A stretch of 64,000 nucleotides of DNA from a virus. The stretch covers positions 47,871-111,870 of IMG/VR virus record IMGVR_UViG_3300028027_000002; one strand, given 5' to 3'. This document shows positions 53,403-62,703 of this stretch, in pieces. How positions within the stretch are numbered: position 1 is the stretch's first letter; every line of letters starts with the position of its first letter. The notes under the pieces were generated by a model that worked only from the letters and a program-made list of their open reading frames with translations, was not told the DNA's origin and made no database searches. The translations under genes were made by a program, and so were the position numbers.

Positions 53403-54480
53403 TGTAATCTTTCTGTTGTAGTTATATTCTAAGTATATACCCGCAGATGTGGTTTGTCAATAGGACTTATCCACAGATAAATACCCATAAAAATGTTAGT
53501 TATCCACACCTTTATCCACAGATAAATGTTACTGATTATATTATTAGACAGTCTAGAAGTGGAGTGAAGTGGAGGATAGTGGAGTAGGGAGCATCTTTAA
53601 AGAGGGCGTCGTAATCTTTTATAGCGGCCAAACCTCACATCTCCAAACCTTATAGCCCCCTTATACCACATATGAATCATATTGTCAAACCTTTGTATGC
53701 ATGGTTTGGGCATTATATACCAAACCTTTGTATTTGTCAAGCCCATTTTATGCCAAAACCTCATATAAAATTTGCTCAAATTTGCTCAGAAAATAAAGAA
53801 AACCTTCATAAAAATATATAAAGGTTTGGAAAAGTTTTAAAAATCAGGAAATAATTTATAGTGGTTTGTTATGGTGTATATACTATAGGGGATTGTGGGT
53901 TTCATCTTGATCCCCTGGCAAAATCGCCTGGTACGGGGAAGAAAAATGCTCCATCGTAATCTTATTTTGAAAAGCCCTGGTACGGGGAAAAATTTTGCTC
54001 CTTCGTAATCTTTTTTTAGAAGAGCGTCAGTTGTGTATAGACGTTGTCCCCACCTGCGGTGTCCTTAGCAGGATTATGATTCATTTTTAGCGGGGGAGAC
54101 TTAGGAAAGAAAGCCTTAAGAGTAACAATAGAATACAACATACCAGTTAAAGCACCCACTGCTTGATCAAACCCATATGAATCATATGGTGTATCATGTC
54201 TATGTGATTTGCTATTAATCATCTGAGCAAAATGGTCTCTAGGCATATCTTTATTATAACACCAGATATGAAGGTTTGACAAACAAGGTTTGATATGGTA
54301 TAAGGTTTGGTACGGGGAAAAGAATTCGTCCTTCGTAATCTTATTCTGGGAAAAATAAATGAGTGATCGTAATCTTATTTTGGAAATGTGGTTTGTCTAA
54401 TATGTCCGATTTGATATGATTTGACGTCGACGTCCCATAACCCCAGGCTTTTGTCAAGCCCAGGGATCAAGGATAAGATA
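53403..54480. repeat. Largely non-coding repeat-rich region (candidate origin/control region)
   Basis: DnaA boxes at 53467, 53500, 53512; many CAAACCT/AGGTTTG heptamers; AT-rich stretch 53760-53870; three TGGTACGGGGAA...TCGTAATCTT direct repeats. Confidence 0.6.
54016..54246 (-). CDS. Hypothetical protein
   Basis: Leaderless TATAAT-6-ATG (MPRDHF...). Confidence 0.45.
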   Translation of the reverse strand: MPRDHFAQMINSKSHRHDTPYDSYGFDQAVGALTGMLYSIVTLKAFFPKSPPLKMNHNPAKDTAGGDNVYTQLTLF

Positions 54481-54481
54481 G

Positions 54482-54793
54482 TTACTCTTGTGTGTCGGGT
54501 GGTGTGTTTTCTTTTTTGTTGTAGGCAAACGCCAAAATTGAGCCAAGGTCTCTATCTTCAATAGAGCCATCAACTTCTTCCTCAGTGACATTAATTAAAT
54601 CTAGAAACATCTTGAATGTTTCATTAATCATTTCTTCACCAAGTGGTGTTAGGTCTTTAATCAAACCTTGTGCCACCATGTATGCCATTGGACAACCTAG
54701 GTCGTTGTATTCCATAAAATTCTTGAAGTCTTCATCTTCACGGAATTCAATCCATAGTTGACCAATCGTTCCTGCTTTATCTGCGAAGTCCAT
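54482..54793 (-). CDS. Hypothetical acidic protein
   Basis: ORF; FMEYNDLGCPMAY motif. Confidence 0.6.
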   Translation of the reverse strand: MDFADKAGTIGQLWIEFREDEDFKNFMEYNDLGCPMAYMVAQGLIKDLTPLGEEMINETFKMFLDLINVTEEEVDGSIEDRDLGSILAFAYNKKENTPPDTQE

Positions 54794-55016
54794 TTACGGG
54801 TCCTTTCATCTCTAACATAAGTTTATCATACTCTTCCATAGATGTCAAACTCAAAACCTCTAGTCTGTGGTAGTTAATCAAGGGTAGGTTTCTTACCATG
54901 TAGTATCCTACTCTTTCTAAGTCTACCGCAAAATCTTGGGTAAGAAGTCTGCCTAACTGTTCTGCCATTCGTGTTTCTTTATTATGAGTCGCCGTTCGTC
55001 TAATTGAATAAGCCAT
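54777..55016 (-). CDS. Hypothetical protein
   Basis: GAGGAG RBS; TTGCGC-17-TACAAT promoter. Confidence 0.55.
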   Translation of the reverse strand: MAYSIRRTATHNKETRMAEQLGRLLTQDFAVDLERVGYYMVRNLPLINYHRLEVLSLTSMEEYDKLMLEMKGPVNGLRR

Positions 55017-55111
55017 AGGTATCTCCTCTGTTCCATTGTATCAAAAAGTAAGGGGGAGCGCAAGCCTACGAAAACCTACGCTCCACCCTGTTAGTCTAAG
55101 GGACCCACTCC

Positions 55112-55480
55112 TTAGATCTGCTCAACCAAAACCTTTGGCACATAAGCATTAATAAATAACTGCCAGTCAACCTGTAGGTCTCTGCCAGCCTCATAGATAG
55201 TCTCTTTAGCAATATCGATGACTACCGTCGTCTCACCTAGTTCAAAGTTAGTACCAGTAATAGCATAGATACCAAACCCTGTTTCCTCCAGAATTGAATC
55301 TTGCATAAGATAACTAATCATCATACGGGTAAAGTAAGCATAGTCGCTCCACCTAGGTTTTGAATGCTGCAGCGCCATTGCTAGGTCCCGCTGCCACTCA
55401 GTCTCACCCCAGTGGCTATATAGGACTACATGCGCCTCATCTTCAACATCCTTGAATACAAAGTTGATCCGTGCTCCCAT
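55112..55480 (-). CDS. Hypothetical phage protein (LYSHWG motif)
   Basis: AGGAG RBS; MGAR...LYSHWG...YFTRMMI. Confidence 0.6.
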   Translation of the reverse strand: MGARINFVFKDVEDEAHVVLYSHWGETEWQRDLAMALQHSKPRWSDYAYFTRMMISYLMQDSILEETGFGIYAITGTNFELGETTVVIDIAKETIYEAGRDLQVDWQLFINAYVPKVLVEQI

Positions 55481-55770
55481 TAGTCTTGCTCCTTAAAAGA
55501 TACAATTGATAGTTGATTTAAAATTTCATTGCAGAGGTCCTCTTCATTATCTGATTCGGCCTCGTATCTAAATGTCATGTAGTCGCCTGTAGGCTCAAAG
55601 ATTGTTTCAACTTTCCAACTAGGCATTCTCTACCTCAAATGTTTGAATAGTTGTGTAGTGAATAATCTCCTTAACTAAATCCTCTTTTGACCTAGCAGAT
55701 GACTCGTAGTCAAGGATTGTGAGAGATTGCTTTGTTGGTTCAAAAACAAAATACAGGTTGTATTTAGCCA

Positions 55771-56205
55771 TTATTTATTTTCCATTTCTATTAGGGTCAT
55801 TTCTTCAATTGTAGCGCATTGTGGGCACTTTTGCAAGTCTGCCTCGTCAAAGGCATCTCTAACTATATTATCAGGGTCCTCAAACTCAGCATTACAGTTC
55901 TCGCAGTAGAACCAGTTATGGCTTACCAAGACCTGCACGGTATCGTCAGGGGTGAAAGGAATCTCAGTGACAAAGTATCCTATTCTATTAACAAATCCCC
56001 AACCATTCCAGATATATGTGCCACCGTCGTCTCCGTCTCCATACATCCAGATATGGCCATTGCCTGCCTGCTTTACAAACTCTACTTCCTCACCATATGT
56101 TTCAAACATCAATCCGTCGAATGAAGCATTAGTGTCTATATGATTAGTGATAGGCTTGTACTTATCTACCCACTCTTCAAATTCAAGTTCTGTAAAGTTA
56201 CCCAT
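55771..56205 (-). CDS. Hypothetical protein with C-terminal zinc ribbon
   Basis: MFETYG...GFVNRIGYFVT; CENC...CPQC. Confidence 0.6.
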   Translation of the reverse strand: MGNFTELEFEEWVDKYKPITNHIDTNASFDGLMFETYGEEVEFVKQAGNGHIWMYGDGDDGGTYIWNGWGFVNRIGYFVTEIPFTPDDTVQVLVSHNWFYCENCNAEFEDPDNIVRDAFDEADLQKCPQCATIEEMTLIEMENK

Positions 56206-56458
56206 TACTCTTTATCCTATCTGCGATAGCAAATGCTAGGTCATATGTTAATTGGTATACTTCTACATAAGCGTCAAGCATACCCTCTAGATGTAGGCGG
56301 TCTACGGTTTGGTCATACTGCTCATTCTCATGGTCAGTATACTCAGCCAATGCTTGCTCGGTTTGATACATGAGGTTCTTTAATTCCCCATGTAGGATGT
56401 TGGTACCTGATTCACCTAAGTCAATCAGTTTTTGTAGTCTTGGGTCTAATGTTGTCAT
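56198..56458 (-). CDS. Hypothetical protein
   Basis: Leaderless gene under a RecA-NDp-type promoter. Confidence 0.55.
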   Translation of the reverse strand: MTTLDPRLQKLIDLGESGTNILHGELKNLMYQTEQALAEYTDHENEQYDQTVDRLHLEGMLDAYVEVYQLTYDLAFAIADRIKSNG

Positions 56459-56666
56459 TAGTCTATTGTAGCCTCTAGCACTGACAAGAAATGGTAGCAG
56501 GCAAGAATCTGTCCAGTAGTAGAAACATCTTCTAACTCTAAGTCCTTATACTCATCACAGTCAAGGTCATCATAGAAGCCCATTTGCTTCTGTAGTTCCT
56601 CAGAGTCTTGCTCCAAGGACAGCAGGTGTAGTCTTACATATTCTTCGAATGTTTTTAGGTCCATAG
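56458..56666 (-). CDS. Hypothetical acidic protein
   Basis: Likely start MDLKTF; leaderless TTGTCA-17-TATAAT. Confidence 0.5.
56465..56486 (-). promoter_or_regulatory. RecA-NDp/PafBC-type promoter
   Basis: TGTCAG-tgctagaggc-TACAAT. Confidence 0.75.
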
Positions 56667-56668
56667 TA

Positions 56669-56899
56669 TTAATTATACGGGTTGGAGTCGATTTTGACAA
56701 CTGTACGGGGTGTGACCTTGCTCACATCTGTAATGATCGGAGCATAGGCCTCTTCATAACTAATATAGTTTAACATCCTACCACAAGGGCATTTCATTTC
56801 TACAACGCCCAGGGGAAAGCCAAAGCCATCCCTAGCAGTAAACTCAACCATAGCGTCACACTCTTCGGGATCACAGACAAAGGTATACTTACTCCACAT
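56669..56899 (-). CDS. Small zinc-binding protein
   Basis: CDPEEC...CPCG. Confidence 0.55.
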   Translation of the reverse strand: MWSKYTFVCDPEECDAMVEFTARDGFGFPLGVVEMKCPCGRMLNYISYEEAYAPIITDVSKVTPRTVVKIDSNPYN

Positions 56900-57224
56900 T
56901 AGTCAAAGTACCCTTCTGCCCATAGTCCATCTAAGAACTCTGTTGCTTTAAATAGATTATCATGTAGCCAAGGGTCGTTGTTAAAATCAACGGTAGTTAA
57001 AGCAGAATGAATAGCCATAGACATATTGTCTAGATCTTCTTTAGTATAACCTAACATACTTCCTCATCCCACCAGTATTTGACTATAGTATTTAAGGTAG
57101 TGTGAATTGCACAATCACAATCCCCACCGTTCATATTTTCCATGTATTCGAGATGGGACTCGTTGTCCATATACATCTCATTGACTAGTTCGTCAATCGT
57201 TCTCATTGTTTGGGTCATGTATTA

Positions 57225-57246
57225 ATTGTAGCGTATGGGACTGACA
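57225..57246 (-). promoter_or_regulatory. RecA-NDp/PafBC-type promoter
   Basis: TGTCAG-tcccatacgc-TACAAT, ATG 6 nt downstream. Confidence 0.75.
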
Positions 57247-57338
57247 AATGCAAGGTTTGGGGAAAAAATATTTCCTATCGTAAAGAATTTCTGGGAAAAA
57301 TATCAGCCTATCGTAAAGTTATTTAATTAAAAATATTA

Positions 57339-57354
57339 TGTGATGTAGGTCACA
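57339..57354. promoter_or_regulatory. CRP/GlxR-type box
   Basis: TGTGA-TGTAGG-TCACA, perfect consensus. Confidence 0.7.
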
Positions 57355-57403
57355 GCCGACGTCGCAAAATTTTTATGCATTGCGTTGCATATTTATTTAC
57401 TTG

Positions 57404-57477
57404 CGATCCGTATGGGACTTGAACCCATGACCTCCACCGTGACAGGGTGGCGAACTAACCAACTATTCTAACGGACC
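57404..57477 (-). tRNA. tRNA-Asp(GTC)
   Basis: Cloverleaf; CCACC-CTGTCAC-GGTGG; GGTTCAAGTCC. Confidence 0.92.
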
Positions 57478-57481
57478 ATGT

Positions 57482-57511
57482 TGAGCAGTTTTAATTCATG
57501 CTCAGGAAATT
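57482..57511 (-). ncRNA. Repeated pseudoknot motif, copy 3
   Basis: AATTTC-C-TGAGCA-T-GAATT-AAAAC-TGCTCA. Confidence 0.65.
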
Positions 57512-57514
57512 TTG

Positions 57515-58528
57515 TTATGCGTTTGTTAGTTCACGCACAACTTTTAGCAAACGATTTTTTTCTGCGTTGATAGCAGGGTCAAAACCACTTGCAGATGCAA
57601 GAATGGATTCGTTAGAACCACCACGAGCAGAACGGTACCAGTCAAGGCGTTCTGTTAGTGCATTGAAAGCACCCCACGCATTACCAGCAATCATTCCATT
57701 AAACTCGCCTGTATAGATGTCGTTAATAACATCTACCTTGTTTTCCCATTTCTTGAAAGCACCCTTAGAATCCTTTTCAGGCTTTGGGTATGCAGCAAGA
57801 ATGATGTCGTTAAACATCTGAGCAGACACTTCTTTTTCAATCATAGCCTTAGCCATAAGGTCAAAAGAGTCCATGTACTTATGTGCAAGTCCAAGAGTTT
57901 CACGAGCAACGGCAACCTTACCGCTTGCAGTTTGTGTGTGACGAATCTTGAATGATTGCTTTACGCCACCCTTTTTGCGGGTAGTGTTAAGTGCAAGATT
58001 GAGAGTGTTAGCGCACACAACACGAACAGGTGTAATGCTTGCTTGAATAGCGATTGAGCCATCATGTGATGTGTTGATGAGCAAATAAGTTTTTACCTTG
58101 TCTGCAACACCATTAGGGTCAAGAATTGTTTCACGCTCTAGTGCTAAAGCACCGAACACTACACGACCACCCTTGATTGAGCCAGCCGTTTCCCAACGAC
58201 CACCACCATCAAGAATGTTATCACCGAATGAAAATAAATCTTCATTCTGCATTACATGGTAACGCTCACCAACGACACCAAGAATGTCGGTCTGAGTGTT
58301 GTCAGTAGGATTGGTACGCAATACATACTGATAGTTTTTGTCGCTTGTTAGGTGTGTGGGGGTTTCCAAATCCTCAAGACGAACATTCCAGTTGGAAAGG
58401 TTAGCCAAATCTAACATTTCTTTTGTGGTTTTTTCCTCTGTGAATACGGTACCCAATCCATGCCAAGCGGGTTCACGGAAAGATGCAAAAGATGCTTTTC
58501 CGTTTTGTGTTTCTAGGTCATGTGCCAT
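57515..58528 (-). CDS. DUF932 (phage/plasmid-like) protein
   Basis: PAWHGLG, ETAGSIKGGRVVF, NTSHDGS, TPVRVVCANTL, IRHT, AWGAFNALTE. Confidence 0.88.
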   Translation of the reverse strand: MAHDLETQNGKASFASFREPAWHGLGTVFTEEKTTKEMLDLANLSNWNVRLEDLETPTHLTSDKNYQYVLRTNPTDNTQTDILGVVGERYHVMQNEDLFSFGDNILDGGGRWETAGSIKGGRVVFGALALERETILDPNGVADKVKTYLLINTSHDGSIAIQASITPVRVVCANTLNLALNTTRKKGGVKQSFKIRHTQTASGKVAVARETLGLAHKYMDSFDLMAKAMIEKEVSAQMFNDIILAAYPKPEKDSKGAFKKWENKVDVINDIYTGEFNGMIAGNAWGAFNALTERLDWYRSARGGSNESILASASGFDPAINAEKNRLLKVVRELTNA

Positions 58529-58559
58529 GAGTTTTCTCCTTTTTGTTGTTGTTAATTTA

Positions 58560-58581
58560 AGTATACACCCACCCACTGACA
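58560..58581 (-). promoter_or_regulatory. RecA-NDp/PafBC-type promoter
   Basis: TGTCAG-tgggtgggtg-TATACT. Confidence 0.75.
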
Positions 58582-58711
58582 AATGCAAATCGGGATAGTT
58601 AGATGTGGATAAATCGGACATTGTGGTGAAGATCACCTATCGTAAACGGCGTGTCGATTTGACAAAGTTATCCACAGGCGGGACGTCAAAAATTTGCAGG
58701 GATTTTAAAAA

Positions 58712-58740
58712 TGAGCAGTTTTTAAACATGCTCAGGTTTA
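58712..58740 (-). ncRNA. Repeated pseudoknot motif, copy 4
   Basis: TAAAC-C-TGAGCA-T-GTTTA-AAAAC-TGCTCA followed by T-run. Confidence 0.65.
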
Positions 58741-58754
58741 TTAGTAGCCCCCTA

Positions 58755-59174
58755 CTAAATATCCACTCGGTCAATCGATGACGATAACCATGAAATATTA
58801 TCTGAGTTGTATTGCACTGTATCAAAATCAATATCATGAATTAAATTCTGTGCATCCTCTTCATTACGAGCATTGACAGTTACGGAGTACATTACTGTAA
58901 CTTCAACTTCAAATTCTTTTGATAGTTCAAATCCACAGATATCTGCAATTTCTTGTGCTTCTGATTCATTCAATGTACCAGAGTCAAGCGCTTCCAGTGT
59001 CCACTCTTGCATTGCTTCAACGATACGATTCTTATCTGCAGACTCGCCGTATGAGCGTTGTGTTACTACTTGAATATGCTTTTCTAGTTCATCTATGCGT
59101 GTTTTGTTTTGTGCAAGAGTGGTTTCTAAAAACTCTCTTGTCATGTAGTGATTATCGATTACTGGTTGGTCCAT
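58755..59174 (-). CDS. Hypothetical acidic protein
   Basis: GAGG RBS; C-terminal VTVNARNEEDA motif. Confidence 0.6.
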   Translation of the reverse strand: MDQPVIDNHYMTREFLETTLAQNKTRIDELEKHIQVVTQRSYGESADKNRIVEAMQEWTLEALDSGTLNESEAQEIADICGFELSKEFEVEVTVMYSVTVNARNEEDAQNLIHDIDFDTVQYNSDNISWLSSSIDRVDI

Positions 59175-59208
59175 AAGGGCTACCTCTTTCTGTTAGTTGT
59201 TTAGTTTA

Positions 59209-59230
59209 ATTGTACTGGGTACCACTGACA
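59209..59230 (-). promoter_or_regulatory. RecA-NDp/PafBC-type promoter (also TTGACA -35)
   Basis: TTGACAAA-TGTCAG-tggtacccag-TACAAT. Confidence 0.75.
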
Positions 59231-59251
59231 TTTGTCAAGGGCCCTTGCGGG

Positions 59252-59278
59252 GAGCAGTTTTGATACTTACTCAGGTAT
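59252..59278 (-). ncRNA. Repeated pseudoknot motif, copy 5
   Basis: ATAC-C-TGAGTA-A-GTAT-CAAAAC-TGCTC. Confidence 0.55.
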
Positions 59279-59430
59279 TTACACTTCTTGCAGTTGGTGT
59301 GAACTGGCTCTATAGTATTTCTATTATCGCCCTAATCAGCCTGGCGAATGATCCCTAGGGAACGCTTGCTATAAATAGCGTGGAGCGCAAGGGATAATGA
59401 GTGGGGCTTTTACACCCCACCCAATCTCAC

Positions 59431-59853
59431 TTAGAGGTAACGAGCAACCGCATTGTAAGTGCTGGTGCTAACTACTTCCTCATCTGTCATCTTGAGAATA
59501 CGAATTGCGTTTGAGATTTCCTCTTTCTGCTCACGATAGTTATAGATAGAGATTGACTCAAAATCCTTTACAGGCTCTTTTGGCAAATCCTTTTCTGCTA
59601 CTGTGAGGTCGAAGTCAATGTTTAACTGATTGTTCCATGAGCGATAGTTAGTGCGGAAGTTTTCTGCCTTCTTGATGTTTGCTATTGCATAATCAACAAG
59701 TTCCTTTTTCCACTTCTCGTATTGCTTTTGGTACTTTGCTTCGTTTGCTTCTTGTGAGGTGTAATCAAGTTCTAGTTTTGCTAGTGCGCCTTCTAGTGCC
59801 TTGATTACCTTTGGTGTTGCGATTTTTACTGAGATTGCTTTTTGTCGTGCCAT
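59431..59853 (-). CDS. Hypothetical coiled-coil protein
   Basis: ORF under RecA-NDp-type promoter. Confidence 0.6.
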   Translation of the reverse strand: MARQKAISVKIATPKVIKALEGALAKLELDYTSQEANEAKYQKQYEKWKKELVDYAIANIKKAENFRTNYRSWNNQLNIDFDLTVAEKDLPKEPVKDFESISIYNYREQKEEISNAIRILKMTDEEVVSTSTYNAVARYL

Positions 59854-59888
59854 GTTGGTTTCTCTTTTCTTTTTGTGGGTTAGTTTCT

Positions 59889-59910
59889 ATTATAGGGGGT
59901 GGGTCTGACA
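59889..59910 (-). promoter_or_regulatory. RecA-NDp/PafBC-type promoter
   Basis: TGTCAG-acccaccccc-TATAAT. Confidence 0.75.
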
Positions 59911-59993
59911 TTTCCCCCGTAGGGGGGAGAGTTCTTACTTACGACATTGGACTAGATACTCTCCTAAACTGTCCCTGTTTCGATTATCTTATT

Positions 59994-60161
59994 TTACTTT
60001 GCTGTCCAAGTTGTCCAGCGTGTGTTACCATTTACATCTAACTTAACACGAACTGTGTCGCCTGTCTTGCTAGGTGCGATTTCCAAGATTGTGCCTGTTA
60101 CCTTTGACTTCTGTGAAGTGTATAGGTCGCCTACCTTGTATGTTGCGGTTGCTACTGTCAT
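59994..60161 (-). CDS. Small SH3/KOW-like beta protein (not in ORF track)
   Basis: MTVATATYKVGDL...VTGTILEI...VRVKL...RWTTW, AAGGA RBS. Confidence 0.55.
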   Translation of the reverse strand: MTVATATYKVGDLYTSQKSKVTGTILEIAPSKTGDTVRVKLDVNGNTRWTTWTAK

Positions 60162-60273
60162 TTTGTTTTTCCTTTTCTGTTAGGGTTTGTTGCCTTATGT
60201 ATTAAGTATAGCAAAAAATCTAAGAAATAACAAATCCATTTCCAAATAATCTCAAAATGTGAGACATTATCTA

Positions 60274-60289
60274 TGTGATTTGCGTCACT
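60274..60289. promoter_or_regulatory. CRP/GlxR-type box (one mismatch)
   Basis: TGTGA-TTTGCG-TCACT; second near-site GGTGA-GAAACA-TCACA at 60360-60375. Confidence 0.55.
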
Positions 60290-60507
60290 AGGTTTCCTGC
60301 TTATAATACAATTTTAGCAGAAAAATCTCAAAAATACAAATCCTGCCTCAAAACCTGGGGGTGAGAAACATCACATCGTAAACCTGCGTGTTGGGCTTGA
60401 CAAATGACTGGTCAGCCGACGTCCCATTTTTCAGGGGATTAGCCACTACCTCCTAAGATAGAAACCATTACTATTAGTATCATTAGTAAATAGAACCAAG
60501 GGCTCAT

Positions 60508-61242
60508 TTATTTTTTACTTGCACTAAATATGATATCACTCTTAGAGTATACACAAAGTGAGCAAGAAACGCAAGCGCTACCAGCAGTTGAGATAAGTGG
60601 AATTTGTTTATTATTCTCAGGACACTTAGCAGCAGGACGGCCAGTCATTTCTTTTACATCGGCTTGACCAATAGCGAAATTCTTAGCAAGGTATGCCATG
60701 CGAACACCGCTATTAATTTTTAGATCAACCGCTGTTTTTACATTCTCGCTATCTGCAGAGAAGTATAGACTAAGATTAGGAATGTCCTTAAGAATAAGTG
60801 CAGCACTCTTTACACGAGTGTATACCCAGAATTGAACATCCTCATGCTTATCAATAACTACTTTCCATGCATATGTATATGTATCATTAAAGAAATCTCC
60901 GTCCCAGTGGATACGGAATAGCATAGGAGCGTCTTTCTTTATACAGTCATTCTTGAAATCAATGATCATCTCATTAAGCAAGCGGACCATATCTTCACCG
61001 TCTGCGTCTTTAAGCAGATCCCAATTGTGTAATAGGTTAGCCTTTACACCCTTGAAGAGTTTTTCAAGTTTTCCTGCATAGCATACGCTTTCACATACGC
61101 TAGTGGCACCAGGGCACGAGAAAGCCTTTCCAGCAGGTAGACCAAAGGTATTTGCGATTGCGGCTTGCTTTCCATTTTTTGTGACAAGATTAGCCACCTT
61201 TCTATCATTAGAGCGTTTTAGTTTAAGTGTATTAGTAGTCAA
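60508..61242 (-). CDS. GP88-family protein (Cys-rich, radical-SAM-like)
   Basis: FGLPAG...SCPGAT..C...CYA, FRIHWDGDF, FWVYTR, CPEN...CVSCSLC. Confidence 0.75.
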   Translation of the reverse strand: MTTNTLKLKRSNDRKVANLVTKNGKQAAIANTFGLPAGKAFSCPGATSVCESVCYAGKLEKLFKGVKANLLHNWDLLKDADGEDMVRLLNEMIIDFKNDCIKKDAPMLFRIHWDGDFFNDTYTYAWKVVIDKHEDVQFWVYTRVKSAALILKDIPNLSLYFSADSENVKTAVDLKINSGVRMAYLAKNFAIGQADVKEMTGRPAAKCPENNKQIPLISTAGSACVSCSLCVYSKSDIIFSASKK

Positions 61243-61411
61243 GGCCTAGACTCATTTCTAGAGCAATGTCTTCGTTATAAGTATATGACATTTCTTCAAG
61301 AAGGCAATGAGTGCACTTATCTTCATACTCATCTACAGAGTTTTCTTTGCATGAAGGGCACACTGTTGCATAGTACTCATCAAGAATTTCATCGTTTTCG
61401 TAGGTCATGGG

Positions 61412-61558
61412 CTATTCTCCTTTTTGTTGATATTTTAATTGTATCAGTTCGGACTGACATTTCTTTCGATTGTAAGTCCTTTTAGAAGGCACGGCAGAGG
61501 CAGCGTTGCTACGGCGTAGGTCCATAAGCCTGCGGAGTTCCTCATCTGTTTTCTTCAT
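61412..61558 (-). CDS. Small basic protein (not in ORF track)
   Basis: MKKTDEELRRLMDLRRSNAA...; leaderless start. Confidence 0.5.
   Translation of the reverse strand: MKKTDEELRRLMDLRRSNAASAVPSKRTYNRKKCQSELIQLKYQQKGE
61438..61459 (-). promoter_or_regulatory. RecA-NDp/PafBC-type promoter
   Basis: TGTCAG-tccgaactga-TACAAT. Confidence 0.75.
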
Positions 61559-61604
61559 ATAACAATATTAACACACATCCAACAAAAATGTCAAATCTGA
61601 ATCG

Positions 61605-61620
61605 TGTGATTAAAATCACA
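61605..61620. promoter_or_regulatory. CRP/GlxR-type box
   Basis: TGTGA-TTAAAA-TCACA, perfect consensus. Confidence 0.7.
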
Positions 61621-61788
61621 AAAATTTTTCCGAGCCCAGGTTCGGGGAAAAGAAAATTAACCTTCTTAAAGATATTTTATATAGGTTACTGGTGAGTAGG
61701 GCAAGGTTATCCACAGGTTATCCCCAGACACACCCGAACGCGACGTCCAAAAATCGCAGAGTTTTATTTCTGCGATCTTGGTTTTTAT

Positions 61789-62055
61789 TTATTCGTTTTC
61801 TAAATACGATTCAAAATCATTTAGAAAAACACGATACGCAATCGGGTCGCACTCTTTTAGAATGTCAGCAGGATAAAATAAAATTCCTGCAATCACTACT
61901 GGTTCATGCGAATCGTTTATGTATTCGTTGAATTGCTCTTGCAATTCTTGTTCTAACTCATAGTCAGTTTTTTCATCAATCTCATTTAGCAATTCTGCTA
62001 ATACGGGCTCAACTGCTTTTGCAGCAAGGTCTAACTTTTCTTGTAGTGTTTTCAT
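61789..62055 (-). CDS. Hypothetical protein (LKECDPIAYR motif)
   Basis: ORF in early array. Confidence 0.55.
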   Translation of the reverse strand: MKTLQEKLDLAAKAVEPVLAELLNEIDEKTDYELEQELQEQFNEYINDSHEPVVIAGILFYPADILKECDPIAYRVFLNDFESYLENE

Positions 62056-62250
62056 TTATTTAACCAACCCTTCGAACCATTGAGAATAACCACCCATGAA
62101 GAATACCTCTTCACCTTTGTGATTAGTAAGTGTTGCAGTCAATGATTCAGTTTCATCATTAACCTCTAGAATCTCTTTGACAAGATAGTTTTGATCGTTG
62201 GAGATAAACAGTTTTCCAACATTGGTTTTATTTATTAGTGATAGTGACAT
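62056..62250 (-). CDS. Hypothetical protein
   Basis: ORF in early array. Confidence 0.5.
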   Translation of the reverse strand: MSLSLINKTNVGKLFISNDQNYLVKEILEVNDETESLTATLTNHKGEEVFFMGGYSQWFEGLVK

Positions 62251-62553
62251 TAGTTTTCTACTTTCTTTAATTCATGTTGATTGTTAAGGGGGCGATTGTT
62301 ATTGGAGAACATGGCTTCAATAACCGCTTTATCTTTTATTGATTGAGCAATTCTTTTTTCTTGTTGCTCTTTAAGAATTCTATCAAAGGTACTCATTAGT
62401 CAAAGTATCCAAATTCTCCTATGCAAGAACCACAGATACCTGAAAATTCTTGCTCATGCTTTTCGCAATAAGCGACTTTCTTTGTTACATTAGTGTTAGT
62501 CATTTTTGACCTAACCTTTCTTAGTGAGAGTTTCTCACTTTCTTTATACTGTA

Positions 62554-62575
62554 AGTGTAGCATGGGGGACTGACA
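62554..62575 (-). promoter_or_regulatory. RecA-NDp/PafBC-type promoter
   Basis: TGTCAG-tcccccatgc-TACACT. Confidence 0.75.
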
Positions 62576-62614
62576 AATTAGCCTGTTTTTCGGGCGTGTC
62601 GGAAAACTATTTTT

Positions 62615-62663
62615 TGTGATAAGCATCACATGACTTATCCACAGGTTATCCACAGGCGACGTC
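62615..62663. promoter_or_regulatory. Composite block: CRP box + two DnaA boxes + GACGTC
   Basis: TGTGA-TAAGCA-TCACA (62615-30), TTATCCACA (62635, 62646), GACGTC (62658). Confidence 0.75.
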
Positions 62664-62703
62664 GCATTTTTTATGCGGGGAAGTGCATAAAAAATACTTT
62701 TAG

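Follow-up and report, generated by a model that had tools for sequence, protein, structure and literature searches.

The early arm of this phage strings together at least ten autonomous early transcription units, and its non-coding blocks share one order on the minus strand: a hairpin or T-run, the hexamer GACGTC, then DnaA-box pairs, CRP-type palindromes, and CGTGTC and TTACGA elements, and finally a promoter. We tentatively read each block as an insulated multi-input control region whose upstream edge may be marked by a word for a strict, lineage-variable reader of double-stranded DNA. The anatomy of the blocks, the enrichment of their elements and the conservation of their order are direct observations. 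The case for a reader comes from the relatives, which keep the layout but each with its own GC-rich word, suggesting that some factor reads it.

Anatomy of the early-arm blocks

The source is a freshwater actinobacterial phage of ~112 kb. The window, that is, the whole 64-kb stretch that was analyzed, comprises bases 47871-111870 of a 111,870-bp contig; its coordinates are marked w and genome positions g. Since the contig ends overlap by 99 bp, the assembly is circular. The early arm occupies the minus strand from w47.3 kb to w64 kb and continues to about g2400. Within the window, GACGTC is found at w54423 and w54429 (in tandem), 57358, 58682, 60418, 61742 and 62658. The seven sites all fall inside the six intergenic blocks for which the original prediction had proposed a shared minus-strand order, and all six blocks are present with their elements in place. 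The number of sites is unremarkable (7 versus 3.05 expected, with 5 of 100 shuffles reaching 7). It is their placement that stands out: the whole genome has 11 copies, every one of them in the non-coding blocks of the early, minus-strand arm, where non-coding DNA amounts to 4.2% of the genome. By a crude ORF mask, nine of the 11 are non-coding (binomial P = 2e-11), and the other two, coding by that mask, were judged non-coding by inspection. Four extra blocks absent from the original prediction lie past the window end, across the circular junction, at g279, 1192, 2213 and 2374. Every one of the 11 slots in the genome holds the perfect hexamer with no near-cognate, and the near-cognates GACGTG and CACGTC have zero occurrences within the 64-kb window. 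Two of the words flank an iteron array (g2213-2374) and have no terminator at their slots. In one block outside the window, a LexA-type box, TCGAAC-N4-GTTCGT, directly follows the word.

Upstream of each slot there is a hairpin (dG -8.9 to -22 kcal/mol) and/or an A/T run. The features of the six window blocks, in w coordinates, are as follows.

Block A
62664..62697, minus: hairpin with a 13-bp stem, an A/T-rich inverted repeat with ACTTCCCC loop (RNAfold dG -13.2); end of the upstream cassette
62658..62663, no strand: boundary word GACGTC, exact match
62635..62654, minus: DnaA pair, two exact boxes (TGTGGATAA) 11 bp apart (62646, 62635)
62615..62630, no strand: perfect CRP/GlxR-type palindrome TGTGA-N6-TCACA
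62593..62600, minus: GACACGCC element (reverse complement GGCGTGTC)
62554..62575, minus: promoter TGTCAG-N10-TAnnnT

Block B
61750..61779, minus: terminator hairpin, then T-run (dG -14.4); a two-way hairpin at 61753-61776 in the plus-strand scan
61742..61747, no strand: boundary word GACGTC, exact match
61707..61726, minus: DnaA pair, TGGGGATAA (61718, one mismatch) and TGTGGATAA (61707), 11 bp apart
61605..61620, no strand: perfect CRP-type palindrome
61565..61594, minus: sigma-A-type promoter TTGACA-18-TAATAT

Block C (no strong hairpin found ahead of the word; dG -8.9)
60418..60423, no strand: boundary word GACGTC, exact match, preceded by CCCCTGAAAAATGG
60406..60413, minus: GACCAGTC, core shared with the iteron repeats near g2300
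60274..60392, minus: AACACGC (60386, a looser GACACGCC variant), TTACGA (60376) and two CRP-type sites
60360-60375 and 60274-60289, minus: the CRP-type sites, one mismatch each
60205..60233, minus: sigma-A-type promoter TTGTTA-17-TATACT with TG

Block D
58712..58736, minus: family hairpin CCTGAGCA..AAACTGCTCA (dG -9.1)
58682..58687, no strand: boundary word GACGTC, exact match
58604..58676, no strand: two inverted DnaA boxes (58668 minus, 58604 plus) around GACACGCC (58648), TTACGA (58640) and ATGTCCG
58560..58581, minus: promoter TGTCAG-N10-TAnnnT, upstream of the DUF932 gene

Block E
57375..57506, minus: family hairpin (57482-57506), tRNA-Asp (57403-57477) and a second hairpin (57375-57390), all ahead of the slot
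57358..57363, no strand: boundary word GACGTC, exact match
57339..57354, no strand: perfect CRP-type palindrome, 3 bp past the word
57259..57316, minus: TTACGA...TTTTTCCC unit, twice (TTACGA at 57311, 57278)
57225..57246, minus: promoter TGTCAG-N10-TAnnnT

Block F
54441..54465, minus: GC-rich terminator hairpin (dG about -21)
54423..54434, no strand: tandem boundary word GACGTCGACGTC, exact match
54314..54408, minus: CGGACAT, then TTACGA...TTTTCCC unit, twice (TTACGA at 54367, 54333)
54253..54282, minus: promoter TTGTCA-18-TATAAT with TG

The promoters at 61565, 60205 and 54253 form a TTGNCA-17/18-TAnnnT class. Not all elements are present in every block, as the original prediction had it, and its modular panel, as opposed to simple duplication, also stands. 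TGTCAG-N10-TAnnnT occurs 10 times versus 0.89 expected (0 of 100 shuffles reach 10), and the CRP pattern with at most one mismatch 8 times versus 3.35 (1 of 100 shuffles). Of the 13 exact DnaA boxes in the genome, seven fall in non-coding parts of the early arm (P = 3e-7). The predicted DnaA sites match the 9-mer TTATCCACA and form phased pairs in non-coding DNA, while the predicted CRP/GlxR-type operators include three perfect TGTGA-N6-TCACA palindromes within blocks, with promoters downstream. Since both kinds of site are enriched and non-coding, host DnaA and a Crp/GlxR-type protein are plausible inputs to the blocks. In PafBC-dependent (RecA-NDp) promoters, the -35 element is replaced by a TGTC(A/G)G-type element with constant spacing to TAnnnT. 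The TGTCAG-N10-TAnnnT promoters are candidates for this class.

Conserved layout and a lineage-specific word

The comparison drew on 80 related IMG/VR loci out of at least 597 relatives, and motif order was scored over 302 slots; these come from the 55 loci to which a word could be assigned, after removal of redundant copies. Over these 302 slots, no DnaA, TTACGA or promoter motif was found upstream of the word. Downstream of it, DnaA boxes lie at +0 to +60 (151 matches no further than +60 nt from the word), CRP-type sites mostly at +0 to +90, TTACGA and TTTTCCC at +30 to +120, and promoters at +60 to +250; a CRP-type site occurs within 300 nt downstream in 52% of slots. Motif order in relatives had been set beforehand as the check on which the original prediction could fall, and the order is kept. 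Because it is kept over so many slots, the motif panel is, on comparative grounds, judged functional. Terminator elements recur as well: the hairpin of block A (CTTCCCCGCATAAAAA) also stands ahead of the slot in 27 relatives, and the family hairpin of block D has 227 sense-strand copies in 69 non-redundant loci.

The word itself is what changes. GACGTC is rare in relatives, with 36 copies in 1.35 Mb, of which five phages account for 28, and the same slot, between conserved flanks, holds GGCGCC, CACGTG, CCTAGG, GCCGGC, GGGCCC, CCCGAG, ACCGCCCC, GCCCGAC or others. There is one word per genome, in 4-11 copies per locus that lie nearly all in the early arm, and it stays single despite strongly mosaic flanking genes, yet it differs between relatives. 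At orthologous slots whose flanks are 85-95% identical, the word alone differs, as with GCCGGC in L026 versus CACGTG in L008 and GACGTC in L045 versus GGCGCC in L005. The slot orthologous to block D carries GGCGCC, CACGTG, CCTAGG, GGGCCC and other words in relatives, and that orthologous to block F carries GACGTCcGACGTC in L036. Among whole records, the share of word copies inside the early arm is 11/11 in G000, 5/5 in G001, 8/8 in G006, 9/9 in G003, 10/10 in G005, 7/7 in G013, and 7/9 in both G008 and G010. Outside the arm, CCTAGG is depleted about 8-fold in the phages that use it, with 2 copies in about 212 kb of CCTAGG-type records versus about 0.09 per kb in other types; the case for depletion outside slots comes mainly from this word, CACGTG giving weaker evidence. 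A cruder test, with an unreliable ORF mask, found no depletion of the word inside early-arm ORFs. Asymmetric words appear in both orientations (CCCGAG 41 forward and 53 reverse, ACCGCCCC 8 and 6), which excludes an RNA-level or directional element. Graded variants also exist, with CACGTG and GACGTG together in three phages and GGGCCCGAG and GGGCCCGAC alongside CCCGAG types in G008, which is what joint drift of site and reader would produce.

The reader of the word and rival explanations

In the proposed mechanism, the hairpin or T-run would end the upstream unit and be followed by the exact, short, GC-rich boundary word, here GACGTC. Next would come a variable operator-like set of phased DnaA-box pairs, CRP/GlxR-type palindromes, GGCGTGTCG, TTACGA, ATGTCCG and TTTTCCC, through which host DnaA, a host Crp-family protein and phage factors may tune each early promoter, with a TGTCAG-N10-TAnnnT or sigma-A-type promoter as the last part. 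The word would be read as double-stranded DNA, in either orientation, by one strict factor whose specificity differs between phage lineages. Sitting on the upstream edge of every control region, this factor could mark or insulate the unit, either as a roadblock to read-through or, stoperator-like, as a common off-switch for the whole early arm. Against this reading, searches by covariation and gene content found no reader, and perfect 6-bp palindromes fit restriction-modification enzymes better than repressors.

In the search for a reader, which covered 81 loci, no early-arm protein family covaried with the word when scored by AUC, by type-specific presence or by per-column association. No gene stood out by word type among eight whole genomes, the only ones in which genes outside the arm were compared, and these tests could pass over a specificity that depends on a few residues. 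An HSP20, a luciferase-like protein, a Cas4-like nuclease, a Zn-ribbon protein, the tail fibre and an HNH protein were considered as readers and rejected, as all track phylogeny or mosaicism. The sole HNH gene shows no link to word type, and the tail-fibre protein no correspondence with the word. None of 53 small early-arm ORFs contains a known DNA-binding domain. The phage has no DNA methyltransferase, with PF01555, PF00145 and PF02086 absent.

Alternatively, the words may be targets of host restriction-modification or epigenetic systems that differ between host strains, purged elsewhere and kept at cassette boundaries. Methylation or enzyme binding there might help the phage, perhaps by providing an epigenetic mark with which parental is told from replicated DNA; or cleavage at boundaries might simply leave every transcription unit intact. 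We consider this unlikely. In its favour, the set of words, made up of exact palindromes of 6 bp and asymmetric words of 6-8 bp in either orientation, resembles a catalogue of restriction-modification specificities, the missing methyltransferase and lack of a covarying phage gene agree with it, as does the CCTAGG depletion, and the DUF932 tree shows at least 24 changes of word state versus a minimum of 12. TGCGCA (118 expected), CGATCG and CTCGAG are missing from the whole phage family, implying heavy restriction pressure. Against it, restriction sites are costly to a phage, and we know of no established mechanism that would select for retention of 5-11 of them. Phages that use different words have near-identical modules in common: this GACGTC phage shares one protein at 95% identity with a CCTAGG phage, and DUF932 at 96% identity with a GGCGCC phage. 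It is therefore probable that such phages meet in the same hosts. The tail fibre does not track the word, and intermediates such as CACGTG with GACGTG better fit a drifting binding specificity than swapped enzymes. That GACGTC belongs to a fixed DnaA/CRP/PafBC host-regulator panel, serving as a sensor of cAMP, replication and DNA damage or as a decoy array, was the original prediction, and is improbable in that form. Its shared panel survives, with enriched non-coding DnaA pairs and CRP-type palindromes whose position is kept in relatives, promoters far above chance and a LexA-type box right behind one word; DnaA and Crp/GlxR-type inputs thus remain plausible. GACGTC as the common host-regulator element does not survive, since most relatives lack it and have another word in the same slot, and a conserved host transcription factor therefore cannot be its reader. 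With one or two sites per block and about 13 exact DnaA boxes in a genome, the array would also be a weak titration sink, and sensor and decoy versions are not told apart.

We regard as very unlikely that the blocks are PeSL-type mobile regulatory cassettes, with the word and terminator-promoter acting as short homologies or cut sites for gene shuffling. A terminator plus early promoter between small ORFan genes does resemble PeSLs (PMC2839356), and gene content between blocks is highly mosaic. However, blastn homology ends fall within 30 nt of a slot in 5.2% of cases versus 5.1% for random positions (68 non-redundant relatives), both flanks are often conserved while the word differs, and 6 bp is too short for homologous exchange. 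It is scarcely credible that the words are functionless, a GC-rich patch aiding termination and kept uniform per genome by gene conversion or descent. Such a patch does lie behind the T-run in all word types, and the efficiency of a terminator is affected by the sequence downstream of it. Yet flanks differ between slots of the same genome, so that conversion of a 6-bp tract would have no homology to act on, the identical hexamer fills 11 slots, including the two terminator-less slots at the iteron array, and the same words recur in distant lineages.

Comparison with known systems

A close parallel to the boundary word with its proposed reader is the stoperator of Cluster A mycobacteriophages (L5, Bxb1), likewise of actinobacterial phages. 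Both systems place many copies of one short non-coding site in a genome (here 11, and 4-11 per related locus), both vary the site between related lineages, and in both the proposed role is that of one factor stopping or silencing transcription at many places. Stoperators are 13-bp asymmetric sites, mostly in one orientation relative to transcription and spread over both arms of the genome; the protein that binds them, an immunity repressor, is known and covaries with the site (PMC6550527, PMC9283540). The words, in contrast, are 6-8 bp rather than ~13 bp, often perfect palindromes, independent of orientation and restricted to the early arm, where they border the control regions on the upstream side, and no cognate repressor was found in the early-arm families of 81 loci or in eight whole genomes. 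The promoter-early stem-loops (PeSLs) of T4-type phages consist of a sigma-70 promoter and a stem-loop and mediate recombination (PMC2839356, PMC4122927). Like them, the blocks combine a terminator and early promoter between small variable early genes in a chain of self-contained units; unlike them, they span 150-300 bp, contain many operator-like sites and a lineage-specific word, and show no enrichment of homology breakpoints at slots.

With restriction-modification targets, the words share an exact short palindromic or asymmetric form that tolerates no mismatch and, as in restriction-site avoidance, depletion outside slots and several further palindromes missing family-wide. Unlike Type II or Type IIG targets, which known phages lose, the word persists at all cassette boundaries, and no matching enzyme is encoded by the phage. 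In Escherichia coli, GATC clusters at oriC and the dnaA promoter are read by Dam and SeqA, and GATC is universal in the host clade. Unlike GATC, the word changes between close relatives, although both are short palindromes of the restriction-modification type, concentrated beside DnaA boxes and at an origin-like repeat array.

The early arm and its control regions

The window corresponds to bases 47871-111870 of a 111,870-bp virus contig whose first and last 99 bases are identical, indicating a circular assembly. With a G+C content of 38% and genes for WhiB, a DnaE-type polymerase, DnaB, primase, RecA and a tail fibre, the genome (G000, also locus L081) probably belongs, as read from this gene content, to a lytic-type phage of an actinobacterium, most likely a low-GC freshwater host. 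A search of the GenBank phage collection turned up no near-identical DNA. Used as a host-search query, the phage WhiB gave one match (79% identical) on L142 (CANGYR010000020.1), a 22.9-kb contig from a Chitinophagaceae metagenome bin that is probably a phage contig put in the wrong bin. Plus-strand genes span g2748 to g94438 (g, genome coordinate; w, window coordinate), while the minus-strand early arm runs from w47.3 kb through the window end to about g2100. This arm encodes DUF932 and GP88 (Pfam family 'Gene product 88'), the latter family coming from a mycobacteriophage, and holds the intergenic control regions, termed blocks here.

The original prediction held that six blocks share an ordered host-regulator panel comprising a terminator, GACGTC, DnaA box, CRP box and promoter. 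The shared order is borne out: read on the minus strand, all six blocks consist of a hairpin and/or A/T run that terminates the preceding unit, then GACGTC, then variable short elements, and finally a promoter with a ribosome-binding site. The number of GACGTC copies in the window is unremarkable (7 observed, 3.05 expected), whereas their placement is remarkable. All 11 copies in the genome lie inside blocks, and the early-arm non-coding DNA, which makes up 4.2% of the genome, holds nine of them under a crude ORF mask (P = 2e-11). Enrichment of TGTCAG-N10-TAnnnT (10 observed, 0.89 expected) and of the CRP-type pattern (8 observed, 3.35 expected) further supports the arrangement, as do exact DnaA boxes, which concentrate in early-arm non-coding DNA (P = 3e-7). 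In blocks A and B the DnaA boxes form direct pairs 11 bp apart, one box of B carrying a mismatch.

Features of the early arm
g279, g1192, g2213 and g2374: GACGTC copies beyond the window end, in the same kind of block
w58712-58736 and w57482-57506, also in relatives: hairpin CCTGAGCA-N-G-N-T..AAACTGCTCA, sequence conserved

The family hairpin (CCTGAGCA..AAACTGCTCA) is present in 227 copies, all on the sense strand, in 69 non-redundant loci, where it follows stop codons and lies directly 5' of tRNA-Asp. It has no match in Rfam, and a scan of w46-64 kb against that database returned tRNAs only. Its conservation in sequence as well as in pairing is suggestive of a protein-recognised RNA element.

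Several other features of the arm merit description. Three exact DnaA boxes fall within 54 bp at w53467-53520, with a fourth 640 bp away at w52824, in early-arm non-coding DNA with no GACGTC nearby. Immediately after the GACGTC at g1192 is a LexA/Cheo-type box (TCGAACagatGTTCGt, g1175-1190), through which one early unit might receive an SOS signal. Between early genes, w59175-59430 and w59860-59990 are long non-coding stretches with TGTCAG promoters of their own and no GACGTC; they may be small RNAs or leaders. A tiny hydrophobic ORF (w60440-60506, approximately MSPWFYLLMILIVMVSILGGSG) between the GP88 gene and block C may encode a membrane peptide. Outside the window, at g2213-2374, the stretch between two GACGTC copies contains four ATGACCAGTCTTAGG-type repeats, each about 22 bp long, together with four of TATAGGGG type; a perfect CRP-type palindrome comes before them and a DnaA-box pair after. 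This region adjoins the divergence point of the two transcription arms and looks like an iteron origin or regulatory hub; in relatives whose word is GGGCCC the layout is kept, with their own word in place of GACGTC.

In three lake or freshwater metatranscriptomes from different studies, contigs map to the early genes and are deepest at DUF932 and w59.1-60.3 kb. They thin out over the bins that contain blocks, which a DNA run still covers. Intergenic DNA differs among relatives, whose contigs align poorly to it, so the thin coverage gives no more than a weak indication of low transcription across the blocks.

A boundary word that varies among relatives

With the DUF932 protein as an IMG/VR query, at least 597 relatives were found, and 80 loci (1.35 Mb) were fetched. 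The block vocabulary recurs in them, including the family hairpin, DnaA boxes, TTACGA, ATGTCCG, TTTTCCC and the TGTCAG promoter, and GGCGTGTCG recurs in both orientations. Across 302 slots, the positions at the upstream edge of control regions occupied by GACGTC in G000, the order of elements is fixed. DnaA boxes peak at +0 to +30 and CRP-type sites at +0 to +60 downstream of the slot, TTACGA and TTTTCCC lie at +30 to +120, and promoters at +60 to +250; a TGTCAG-type promoter is found within 300 nt downstream in 65% of slots. Upstream of the slot, all 302 are free of DnaA, TTACGA and promoter motifs.

While the predicted order thus persists in relatives, GACGTC as a shared element of the panel does not. 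In the 80 loci it has 36 copies, of which 28 belong to five phages; elsewhere the orthologous slot holds a different short GC-rich word between the same hairpin and the same downstream elements. Some words are palindromic (GGCGCC, CACGTG, CCTAGG, GCCGGC, GGGCCC) and others asymmetric (CCCGAG/CTCGGG, ACCGCCCC, GCCCGAC, GCCCGGC, TTCCGGC, GGCCAGC, CGAACCG, TCGACCC). Within a phage, nearly all slots carry one and the same word, and where flanks are 85-95% identical, the word is the sole difference.

Table. Word used by each genome and its copies in the early arm (of all copies)
G000 (this genome): GACGTC, 11/11
G001: GACGTC, 5/5
G006: CACGTG, 8/8
G003: CCCGAG, 9/9
G005: CCCGAG, 10/10
G013: GGCGCC, 7/7
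G008: GGGCCC, 7/9
G010: CACGTG, 7/9

In four records of the CCTAGG type (types being named by word), 28 of 30 CCTAGG copies are in the early arm, leaving 2 in about 212 kb elsewhere. In genomes of other types, by comparison, about 0.09 copies per kb are scattered along the whole sequence; the word is thus kept at slots and depleted elsewhere. Within early-arm ORFs the self-word count (17 observed, 13.1 expected) is unreliable, as some slots fall under the crude ORF mask. Recoding of CCTAGG at a conserved Pro-Arg codon pair is seen in two of three CCTAGG-type loci and in two loci of other types, numbers too small to weigh.

Asymmetric words occur at slots in both orientations (CCCGAG, 41 forward and 53 reverse; ACCGCCCC, 8 and 6), which implies that recognition is of double-stranded DNA and directionless. 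The slots of G000 hold no near-cognate, and GACGTG/CACGTC is absent from the 64-kb window. Intermediates exist among relatives: three phages mix CACGTG with GACGTG, and G008 has GGGCCCGAG and GGGCCCGAC beside relatives with CCCGAG. On a DUF932 tree, the 13 word states require 24 changes against 35-40 after shuffling; the word is partly inherited and has switched often. In the comparison across genomes, a GGGACGTCCC palindrome at module edges, matching G001 by its coordinates, the conserved hairpin, phased DnaA boxes, CRP boxes near a CYCGRG site and PafBC-type promoters prove to be parts of one system with a variable word.

Some palindromes are wholly missing from the pooled 80 loci. Under a Markov model, 118 copies of TGCGCA, 26 of CGATCG and 15 of CTCGAG were expected in the 1.35 Mb; CCGCGG, TCCGGA and ACCGGT are likewise absent. 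These absences point to strong restriction-site avoidance by the whole phage family.

The search for a reader of the word

The data call for a reader of double-stranded DNA that is strict, independent of orientation and variable in specificity between lineages. None of the three main Pfam DNA methyltransferase families is represented in G000, and its only HNH gene, found in 14 of 81 loci, has no link to the word. The 53 small early ORFs of G000 contain no known DNA-binding domain. To look for proteins that covary with the word, AUC of identity, presence specific to a type and mutual information per column were computed, and columns consistent with type were sought in eight genomes, none with a convincing result. 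Across the early-arm protein families, four tests detected no covariation with the word.

Candidates considered among the proteins
w24708-25508: 266-aa protein with a C-terminal Cys cluster, which by its sequence looks like a Cas4/RecB-family nuclease; it adjoins the next entry
w25486-25761: basic protein with two Zn-ribbons
About 8 kb upstream of DUF932, opposite strand, in L011, L071 and L077-L080: endonuclease VII/HNH-type protein of 190-200 aa with Zn-ribbon repeats

In the eight complete or large genomes, all candidates track the general phylogeny; this applies to the HSP20 allele, a very divergent luciferase-like protein, the Cas4-like nuclease, a collagen-like protein and the small protein pair at w54.5-55.0 kb. 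The GP88 variable region does not track the word either. A 588-aa protein that looked exclusive to the two complete genomes with GACGTC proved to be a tail fibre, the C-terminal part of which is equally similar in CACGTG and CCTAGG phages. The Zn-ribbon protein shares 95% identity with its counterpart in a CCTAGG-type phage but only 70% with that in the other GACGTC genome. Endonuclease VII is absent from G000 and present in some, not all, CACGTG-type relatives; the protein of 190-200 aa is limited to some phages of the CACGTG and CACGTG/GACGTG types.

The tail fibre and Zn-ribbon protein are therefore common to phages of different word types. Such sharing indicates that modules are exchanged between types, and hence that uniformity of the word within a genome is maintained by selection. 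Slots show no enrichment of homology breakpoints, so the words are not recombination joints.

Possible roles of the word and comparison with known systems

That the early arm strings together insulated transcription units, under control regions that take multiple inputs, can be stated with high confidence, and host DnaA and a Crp-family protein are plausible sources of input. Placement of the word at the upstream edge of each control region and on both sides of the g2213-2374 iterons suggests that it may serve as a boundary or roadblock, or as a common shut-off operator. In this tentative first reading, which is possible although somewhat short of probable, a lineage-variable reader would recognise the word in one of these capacities. 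The main rival, that the words are host restriction-modification-type target sites co-opted by the phage, is rather unlikely. The repertoire of words and the absence of any phage determinant speak for it; the cost of such sites to a phage and the sharing of modules between word types speak against it. Slightly less likely again is that the words are restriction-modification or epigenetic sites, variable with the host strain and kept at control-region edges and origin-like repeats, where the host's enzyme or methyl mark would act as a switch or insulator and a lineage would retune all its slots on moving to hosts with a different system.

Should the reader prove to be host-encoded, phages would for the first time be seen to favour restriction-type sites and not to lose them. 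The word set has been swapped among close relatives at least a dozen times, and the phages form a large family, abundant in lakes, that numbers at least 597 contigs in IMG/VR. The family therefore offers a natural series of matched site variants with which a new kind of sequence-specific reader could be found, and with which one may ask how a phage keeps many dispersed sites matched to their reader. The conserved DnaA-box pairs and CRP-type sites, in turn, open host-state control of early genes to direct testing in freshwater Actinobacteria of uncultured type.

In phages, both chained terminator-promoter cassettes and repeated operator sites have precedents. A targeted full-text literature search found no short exact word that marks every early control region, is uniform across a genome despite heavy mosaicism and is swapped as a set among close relatives. 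The closest known system is that of the stoperators of Cluster A mycobacteriophages. The boundary words are not members of that system, because they differ from stoperators in length, symmetry and orientation of the site and the search yielded no repressor.
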